Assembly: GCA_035347155.1 (NCBI GenBank)
Contig: DAORET010000006.1
Coordinates: 1-64,000 of the forward strand
Reading direction: 5' to 3'
Length of the DNA: 64,000 nucleotides
From: Leptospiraceae bacterium
GTDB taxonomy: Bacteria; Spirochaetota; Leptospiria; Leptospirales; Leptospiraceae
Made by a program: the position numbers and the translations under genes
Part shown: positions 28,444 to 28,827 of the stretch, in pieces
Numbering within the stretch: position 1 is the first letter of the stretch
Layout: every line of letters starts with the position of its first letter
The notes under the pieces: generated by a model
The model's input: the letters and a program-made list of their open reading frames with translations, nothing else
Databases searched by the model: none
Told to the model about the DNA's origin: nothing

Positions 28444-28827
28444 TTAATTGCACCAACTTTTATCACCACTTGCAATTGCTTTACACTGTGCAGAGCTACA
28501 CCAAGATTTATCTTTAGAAGCAACTCCTTTGCAATCAGAATCATTGCACCAACTTTTATCACTACTTGCCCATGCTTTGCAAAGAGGAGAACTACACCAT
28601 GACTTATCTTTAGATGCAACTCCTTTACAATCATTTGTCTGACACCAACTCTTGTCTCCACTAGCAATGCCTTTGCAATCGTTAGTTGTGCACCAACTTT
28701 TGTCTTTGCTTGCTATGCCTTTACAATCTCCCGAAGACAGGGAAGAGATGAAATTACTTCCCCAATCAGCAGCGGCGAGGTTAATAGAGATTAACCCCAT
28801 AAACAAAATTAACTTAATTTTATTCAT
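28444..28827 (-). CDS. Small secreted Cys-rich tandem-repeat protein (DKSWC repeats)
   Basis: 127 aa with a signal peptide (MNKIKLILFMGLISINLAAA). It then has about 7 copies of a roughly 14-16-aa unit, CKG(I/V)AS(K/G)DKSWC(S/T)(S/T)N(D), encoded by degenerate 42-48-bp DNA repeats. Confidence 0.55.
   Translation of the reverse strand: MNKIKLILFMGLISINLAAADWGSNFISSLSSGDCKGIASKDKSWCTTNDCKGIASGDKSWCQTNDCKGVASKDKSWCSSPLCKAWASSDKSWCNDSDCKGVASKDKSWCSSAQCKAIASGDKSWCN

Follow-up and report, generated by a model that had tools for sequence, protein, structure and literature searches.

A 64,000-nt stretch of contig sequence from a Leptospiraceae bacterium (the window) contains a short cysteine-rich repeat that lies between the genes for an MVP homolog and a hybrid histidine kinase, and over which reading frames are open on both strands. 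The locus raises the question of whether this repeat encodes a protein at all, on which strand, what the product would look like, and whether its conspicuous neighbours have any bearing on what it might do.

Reading frame, export signal and repeat array

The coding sequence of the mini-protein occupies positions 28444–28827 of the minus strand, with an ATG start, a TAA stop (28444–28446) and, 7 nt 5' of the ATG, a putative Shine-Dalgarno sequence recognised from the sequence (AAGGAG, 28835–28840, minus strand). The precursor of 127 amino acids opens with MNKIK followed by LILFMGLISINLAAA, that is, with two lysines, a hydrophobic stretch of 15 residues and an A-x-A motif in front of Asp21, which on a by-eye reading predicts a Sec signal peptide over residues 1–20 (MNKIKLILFMGLISINLAAA; 28768–28827, minus strand). 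This is followed by a conserved N-terminal cap formed by residues 21–33 (DWGSNFISSLSSG; 28729–28767, minus strand), with the family motif W-x4-I-x2-LS-x-G/N-D, in which Trp22 and Ser31 are at least 90% conserved in the family alignment (A1). In both AF2 runs described below the cap has pLDDT values of 91–93 and the signal region low ones.

The rest of the chain is an array of six 16-residue units of the form D-C-K-G/A-I/V/W-A-S-x-D-K-S-W-C-x3 (28447–28728, minus strand), delimited by cysteine count, unit alignment and the AF2 models. Units 1 to 6 read DCKGIASKDKSWCTTN, DCKGIASGDKSWCQTN, DCKGVASKDKSWCSSP, LCKAWASSDKSWCNDS, DCKGVASKDKSWCSSA and QCKAIASGDKSWCN, and the C-x10-C cores lie at 28690–28725, 28642–28677, 28594–28629, 28546–28581, 28498–28533 and 28450–28485 of the minus strand. 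All six units are in register and have an identical cysteine spacing: a script count places the 12 cysteines at positions 35, 46, 51, 62 and so on up to 126, with gaps that alternate exactly between 10 and 4 residues, and the protein ends C-N-stop, one residue past the last of them. The mature form, of 107 residues, is 11% cysteine and contains no His, Met or Glu.

At the DNA level, Tandem Repeats Finder reported periods of 48 and 96 bp over the array, the 96-bp double unit being the better conserved (84% matches, score 276). The most similar units are 3 and 5 (85%) and 4 and 6 (80%), which suggests that the last duplication copied a block of two units. The repeat motif was found nowhere else in the window. 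A preliminary description of this region had read the minus-strand frame as a signal peptide followed by a tandem repeat, in agreement with the ATG-initiated frame of 127 residues found here. Its figures need revision: the about seven repeats become six, the 14 Cys in 105 mature residues become 12 in 107, the C-x11-C-x3 spacing is strictly C-x10-C-x4-C throughout, and the degenerate 42–48-bp DNA repeat has a period of exactly 48 bp with a 96-bp double unit.

Two frames on the plus strand, one of 64 aa (28448–28642) and one of 65 aa (28652–28849), mirror the array. Open frames on both strands are what gives substance to the view that the minus-strand frame is a by-product of the DNA repeat, or that an opposite-strand frame is the true product. 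All six frames were compared by pN/pS with 17 homologous domains from other genomes, every one of which aligns to the 106-codon domain of the mini-protein without gaps. The sense frame had the lowest value of the six in 17 of 17 comparisons (0.07 against L009, the closest ortholog, at 82% DNA identity) and is free of stops in all 17 homologs. Four of the non-sense frames gave values mostly above 1, and the antisense frame that shares its third codon positions with the sense frame showed a fairly low pN/pS, as expected, yet is interrupted by stops in many homologs. Low pN/pS and the absence of stops in all homologs combine only in the sense frame, and the protein remains 70–75% identical to relatives in high-GC Myxococcota at a DNA identity of 53–64% (60–62% for the Kofleriaceae proteins). 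The mini-protein gene is real and its sense frame is under strong purifying selection. The two mirror frames, with an antisense pN/pS above 1 or stops in many homologs, are repeat artefacts, as had been supposed from the sequence, and the view that there is no gene on the minus strand, rejected on the sense-frame selection and on the conservation of the protein beyond that of its DNA, keeps practically no probability.

The codons of the array are in line with selection on the protein. Serine is written with AGY codons in units 1, 2, 4 and 6 and with TCN codons in units 3 and 5, and identical residues are often encoded differently from one unit to the next, so that the repeat motif is held by selection at the protein level and not by homogenisation of the DNA. 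Gene conversion between units, considered as a source of the uniform loops discussed below, was rejected on account of these synonymous differences, the two serine codon families and unit signatures that persist across phyla.

At the site of the signal peptide the homologs bear Sec signals, lipoboxes (ISAC, VGCA, GLGCA) or a membrane helix with a variable linker. These signals and anchors, together with the somatomedin-B domain of several relatives, an extracellular module of the disulfide-knot type, place the family outside the cytoplasm, and sequence features of the mini-protein and its relatives alike predict that it is exported; the signal peptide and secreted product of the preliminary description are borne out both by the Sec-type N-terminus, read by eye, and by the export signals of the relatives. 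The GC content around the gene (0.33–0.37) is the same as that of its flanks and of the host, and searches of plasmid and phage collections returned nothing resembling the mini-protein; an origin from a mobile element was rejected on these grounds.

Relatives, domain architectures and neighbouring genes

Scans of Pfam and NCBIfam with the mini-protein and 20 relatives placed no model over the repeat and returned only sub-threshold matches attributable to chance, those of the mini-protein itself in Pfam, at E values up to 10, being DUF3551 and IBR, both under their cut-offs. The DUF3551 match (PF12071; E = 0.0066) scores 17 bits against a cut-off of 26.5 bits and covers residues 42–70, less than two units; the same model has E = 0.2 in the relative P0034 and describes an unrelated family of small Cys-containing proteins, and the match was rejected as chance. 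The best result of a sequence profile search of the PDB, SopE at E about 0.15, was likewise taken as chance, and literature searches on Cys-rich repeats, CX10C motifs and bacterial MVP yielded nothing on a C-x10-C-x4 family. The Pfam, NCBIfam and PDB profile searches all agree with the initial impression that the protein belongs to no recognised family.

A word-indexed search gave 27 close homologs at 46–77% identity, and an HMM search with the alignment of homologs extended this to 201 clusters at E ≤0.001 and 124 at E ≤1e-10, counted at 50% identity and amounting to about 200 relatives. The HMM matches P0049, P0113 and P0145 were dropped as Cys-poor, low-complexity repeat proteins. In a scan of one genome per species, homologs of the mini-protein were located at 32 loci, all in MAGs, mostly of Leptospiraceae/Spirochaetota or Myxococcota (Kofleriaceae, Polyangia, Myxococcaceae), with a few labelled Proteobacteria, Deltaproteobacteria, Enterobacteriaceae or Rickettsiales. 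The MAGs labelled Enterobacteriaceae and Rickettsiales (L013 and L026) are out of line with the other loci, and mis-binning may account for them. All named relatives are annotated as "hypothetical protein" and come from metagenomes or MAGs. Judged by these searches, the C-x10-C-x4 proteins form an undescribed family, all of whose members known to date come from uncultured bacteria, and would define a family missing from Pfam and NCBIfam despite its about 200 clusters. It marks an exported module common to two very distant phyla; real as it is and outside the curated databases, it is so far linked with no biological process or open question.

The unit consensus drawn from 159 family proteins is D-C-[KR]-[AG]-h-h-x-x-[DN]-x-x-h-C, with a linker of four residues after it; most of these proteins contain five or six units, and in 87 the chain stops exactly one residue past the last Cys. 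The mini-protein has the features by which the family is defined, namely an export signal and then 4–7 chained units of the form D-C-[KR]-[AG]-h-h-x2-[DN]-x2-h-C, with as a rule a single residue between the last Cys and the stop. In larger relatives the array also forms the very C-terminal end of lipoproteins (300–960 aa) and of secreted proteins, among them a 964-aa lipoprotein with WG beta-repeats (P0060), the coiled-coil lipoproteins P0091, P0098, P0101 and P0149 (440–504 aa), and P0031, P0095–P0097, P0099 and P0123 (316–616 aa), and is placed instead at the N-terminus in P0028 and P0030. This distribution over both ends of larger proteins indicates a portable domain, of which the mini-protein is the stand-alone form, equivalent to the module that closes the larger lipoproteins and secreted proteins.

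In P0034, P0038, P0039, P0040, P0047 and P0055 a somatomedin-B domain (PF01033, over the Pfam cut-off) precedes the array; the same profile finds no match in the mini-protein itself. The best-known occurrences of somatomedin B are in extracellular proteins of animals. P0172 and P0173 (L040, 5001–5804) also pair this domain with a C-x10-C array. The proteins that combine the two come from metagenomes or MAGs, and several have lipoprotein-type N-termini.

Within the six-unit core group the individual units keep their signatures across phyla (G-V in units 3 and 5, A-W in unit 4, A-I in unit 6), and so do the linkers S-S-x-L and S-x-Q and the cap, W-x4-I-x2-LS-x-G-D. A four-unit minority (P0020–P0022 and P0024) lacks a block of two units. 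On these alignments, including the gap-free match of all 17 homologs from other genomes, the array is old and fixed, with units that are individually recognisable across phyla, and is not a variable repeat tract; a comparison of copy number between strains, as proposed in the preliminary description, would be directed at a property that this array does not have.

The Leptospiraceae can carry two paralogs, one with a Sec signal and DKSWC units and one of lipoprotein type with DRYYC units, both of which are found in the same MAG, JANYCR01 (L009 and L028). The DRYYC type (L001, L027 and L028) has a synteny of its own, with a HAD hydrolase upstream and a TP0873_N/DUF8042 protein, FliD and polyphosphate kinase downstream.

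In the window the mini-protein gene is preceded, 38 nt upstream of its start, by the gene for an MVP homolog of 832 aa (28866–31364, minus strand; PF11978 MVP_shoulder at 2.7e-24, Vault_3, Band_7) and followed by that of the MASE1 hybrid histidine kinase (25963–28419, minus strand; MASE1, HisKA, HATPase_c, Response_reg). The kinase frame was called from a TTG at 28419, and an ATG at 28392 (MKKLNYFF...), nine codons in, is the probable start, so that the gap after the mini-protein stop measures 24 nt (TTG) or 51 nt (ATG). No terminator-like site was found among the three genes, and the sequence makes their co-transcription in the window plausible.

Three genes packed this tightly on one strand, in an order that is kept in L009, could be taken to mean that the mini-protein serves the MASE1 kinase as an extracellular ligand or co-sensor, or acts together with the MVP homolog, and the preliminary description had drawn from this position the suggestion of a ligand. 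L009 is the only other locus at which both genes flank that of the mini-protein; they are absent at the other 38 of the 39 homolog loci (L001–L039). The MAG concerned, Leptospiraceae JANYCR01, is the nearest relative of the window, and the whole 13-kb contig is syntenic with it (Che cluster, MVP homolog and mini-protein in the same order, 74–90% protein identity), so that the order kept there reflects shared ancestry and not selection. Moreover, the L009 kinase has a different sensor half, its alignment being restricted to residues 383–800, and the MVP homolog has no signal peptide and is presumably cytoplasmic. A partnership with either neighbour is very improbable.

Across the 39 loci, all-vs-all ORF clustering, BLAST of the window ORFs and Pfam analysis of the flanks detected no recurrent neighbour beyond the synteny of close relatives, and the neighbours of three more distant family members are likewise unrelated. 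Restriction enzymes, a deaminase, Uma2, Fic, nitroreductase and methyltransferases are found beside the gene elsewhere, as are an NHL-repeat protein, a HAD hydrolase, FliD, a fatty-acid desaturase and an amidase. The one mild recurrence, which may be due to chance, is a large PF11617 (Cu-binding_MopE-like) protein, partly with a beta-helix, which a few Myxococcota loci have beside the gene or not far from it (L004, 4931–7933; L007, 10388–12055; L024, 8788–12345; L038, 8744–12301). As read from these comparisons, the genomic position says nothing on the function of the mini-protein, and the eye-catching MVP and kinase genes have no apparent functional link to it.

The MVP homolog itself lies directly downstream of a complete chemotaxis cluster (31462–40179, minus strand) that codes for an MCP, CheW, CheA, CheB, a HATPase protein and a CheY-like regulator, in an order kept in L009. 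In the 1214-aa chemoreceptor of this cluster (36535–40179, minus strand), seven HAMP_2 stretches (E 5.7e-194) form a poly-HAMP array that separates a four-helix-bundle sensor domain from the MCP signalling domain. The MVP homologs of bacteria listed in a preprint (10.1101/872010) are confined to Myxococcales, Cytophagales and Oscillatoriales, and spirochaetes are not among them.

Predicted fold, periodic loops and possible role

An AF2 run on 25 sequences, a shallow alignment, gave a mean pLDDT of 89, with 98 in the repeats and two of the five models poor. In a second run, for which 88 diverse sequences were aligned, each of the five models scored about 91 (98–99 in the repeats; pTM 0.80), values to be read with the reservation that AF2 may be over-confident on repeats. 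In both runs each unit consists of an 8-residue helix starting at the first Cys and a 3-residue helical turn placed just before the second Cys. The helical-repeat prediction is a confident one, and the predicted fold has no counterpart in the PDB or BFVD in the searches made here. The conserved Asp at position −1 and Asp/Asn at position +7 fit helix N-caps: in each unit the former would open the 8-residue helix that starts with the first Cys, and the latter would cap the one-turn helix that ends at the second. The two cysteines of a unit would form a disulfide stapling this miniature helix hairpin, and six stapled units would stack into a rigid rod, a helical solenoid that follows the short cap in the 107-residue mature protein.

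Pairing within each unit (Cys35–Cys46 and equivalents) is suggested by several features of the family. Arrays always open with a first Cys and close with a second Cys; relatives with five units lack both cysteines of unit 1 together; and in P0040, P0041 and P0047 unit 4 is expanded to C-x7-C-x13/14-C-x7-C, resembling a longer hairpin with two staples. At this same unit-4 site P0054 has a longer insertion with two extra cysteines.

The extracytoplasmic location and the strictly even, paired cysteine pattern also favour disulfides over free thiols. Were the 12 cysteines reduced, they might bind Cu, Zn, Cd, Hg or As, or scavenge periplasmic oxidants, and the cysteine content of the mature protein has invited a likening to metallothionein or a copper storage protein, as has the nearby PF11617 protein. 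Cysteine clusters of the metallothionein type (CxC, CxxC, CC) are absent from the mini-protein, the only gaps being 10 and 4 residues, and the mature chain offers none of the residues His, Met and Glu. The cysteines are always paired, with units gained or lost as pairs, export would bring them into oxidising surroundings, and a disulfide-knot domain is present in relatives. No metal-resistance genes recur near the 39 loci, and an adjacency to PF11617 limited to a few Myxococcota loci may be fortuitous. A thiol sink for metals or oxidants is improbable, and the structural proposal, an exported, disulfide-stapled helical rod, is quite probable.

The small size of the protein, its cysteine-rich and repetitive sequence, its end right after the last Cys and the patchy distribution of the family over predatory and environmental lineages would also suit a modified-peptide precursor or a secreted peptide with antimicrobial or toxic action. 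RiPP precursors were considered in this connection, and no conserved maturase, transporter or immunity gene was found across the 39 loci or near the more distant members. In addition, the N-terminal segment is a Sec or lipoprotein signal of the ordinary kind and not a leader peptide, and the array is also a domain of proteins of up to 964 aa, all of which leaves this explanation with little chance of being correct.

A comparison of positions within the unit separates a scaffold from a set of loops. Identity at the loop positions, +5 to +10, falls from 0.41 within a protein to 0.15 between proteins, a larger drop than that at the scaffold positions, from 0.50 to 0.36. Many family proteins have a loop motif of their own in every unit (P0096, P0045, P0061, P0056, P0042 and others; examples of such motifs are DHNSAE, KNDYSY, RNKDMY, RNSDSY and SGNSGL), and the buried scaffold positions (D-C-K/R-A/G-hydrophobic-hydrophobic ... 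hydrophobic-C) are common to the whole family. In the mini-protein the six loops (S-x-D-K-S-W) are nearly identical and would make a periodic surface. The residue preceding the second Cys behaves in an all-or-none manner: among 44 distinct six-unit domains it is Trp in all six units in 24, Tyr in all six in 12 and a mixture of both in 2. Since gene conversion is unlikely, this points to a coupling between units, which could arise from a stacked ladder within the rod or from repeated contacts with a periodic partner.

The reading preferred here, to which a probability of about 0.5 is assigned, is that of an exported, disulfide-stapled helical rod whose six loops form a multivalent scaffold for binding or adhesion. 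Such a scaffold may act as a stable device in the periplasm or at the cell surface, directed at a repetitive or polymeric partner. The binding role considered by itself is argued by analogy and stays tentative, with the balance tilted somewhat against it. The preliminary description had proposed an extracellular ligand or adhesin-like module; the adhesin-like part is a reasonable guess given the terminal module of large exported relatives, and the part that leaned on gene position falls with the comparison of loci above. Neither the neighbours at the loci examined, nor fusion partners, nor known binding motifs gave a conserved pointer to a particular ligand.

The same regularity might have a purely structural origin, in an inert rod, spacer or cap that resists proteases and oxidation, has no ligand and owes its uniform loops to the packing of units. 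Most of the conserved positions belong to the scaffold, the all-or-none Trp/Tyr pattern matches a stacked ladder between units, and in larger proteins the array comes after long linkers or coiled coils. The stand-alone form of 107 residues, however, has nothing to space or to cap, and the 70–75% identity between Leptospiraceae and Myxococcota includes loop residues. An inert module is unlikely on this evidence, although less so than the thiol sink.

Extended to the whole family, the binding-scaffold reading would make the array a new fold, a 16-residue helical solenoid with one disulfide per turn, and a binding module that is widespread outside the cytoplasm of uncultured bacteria, namely Myxococcota, Leptospiraceae and their relatives, with loops that could contact a periodic ligand, for example an envelope or prey polysaccharide or a surface. 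This extension depends on the predicted model and is speculative, being rather doubtful as a whole. If the model holds, the helical repeat, with one disulfide per 16 residues, would be unusually short for a solenoid that is stable; protein engineering can make good use of scaffolds that are rigid, small and highly regular as points of departure.

Comparison with known systems

Several well-known architectures share individual traits with the predicted rod. The insect antifreeze proteins, such as that of Tenebrio with its 12-residue repeat, are Cys-rich beta-helix solenoids with a disulfide per turn and a TxT ice-binding ladder. The mini-protein resembles them in its very short, regular tandem repeats rich in cysteine, in the disulfide assigned to each turn, in the rigid rod and in the periodic surface, but it is predicted to be all-helical and has no TxT motif.

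A likeness is also offered by the disulfide-stapled helix hairpins of the twin CX9C/CHCH proteins and of the plant alpha-hairpinins (CX3C...CX3C), which the expanded unit 4 of P0040, P0041 and P0047 resembles in its two putative staples. These are eukaryotic single hairpins with two staples each, whereas the mini-protein is bacterial, carries a Sec export signal and has six tandem units with one putative staple per 16 residues and a C-x10-C core. The pair of C-x9-C motifs typical of CHCH does not occur in it, the spacing being C-x10-C-x4 throughout, and no CHCH match was obtained in Pfam.

In two papers on venom-type secreted cysteine-rich repeat proteins (SCREPs; PMC6262176, PMC9885460), the repeats are described as independently folded domains. 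As a description the label suits the mini-protein, which has a signal peptide followed by tandem disulfide-stabilised repeats; unlike the SCREP repeats described there, a unit of the mini-protein is too small for independent folding, and the six are predicted to stack as one domain.

By its predicted mode of action the mini-protein is closest to the Sel1-like Helicobacter cysteine-rich proteins (Hcp). HcpB and HcpC (Sel1-like, PF08238) are built of helical repeats with one disulfide per unit, stacked as a solenoid. A Pfam scan of the mini-protein at E values up to 10 gave no match to a Sel1 or TPR profile, and the unit lengths also differ: Sel1-like units have about 36 residues arranged in two full antiparallel helices, and the mini-protein unit has 16, which would accommodate an 8-residue helix and a one-turn helix. 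What the two would have in common is an exported bacterial protein made of helical repeats, each closed by one disulfide and stacked into a solenoid.
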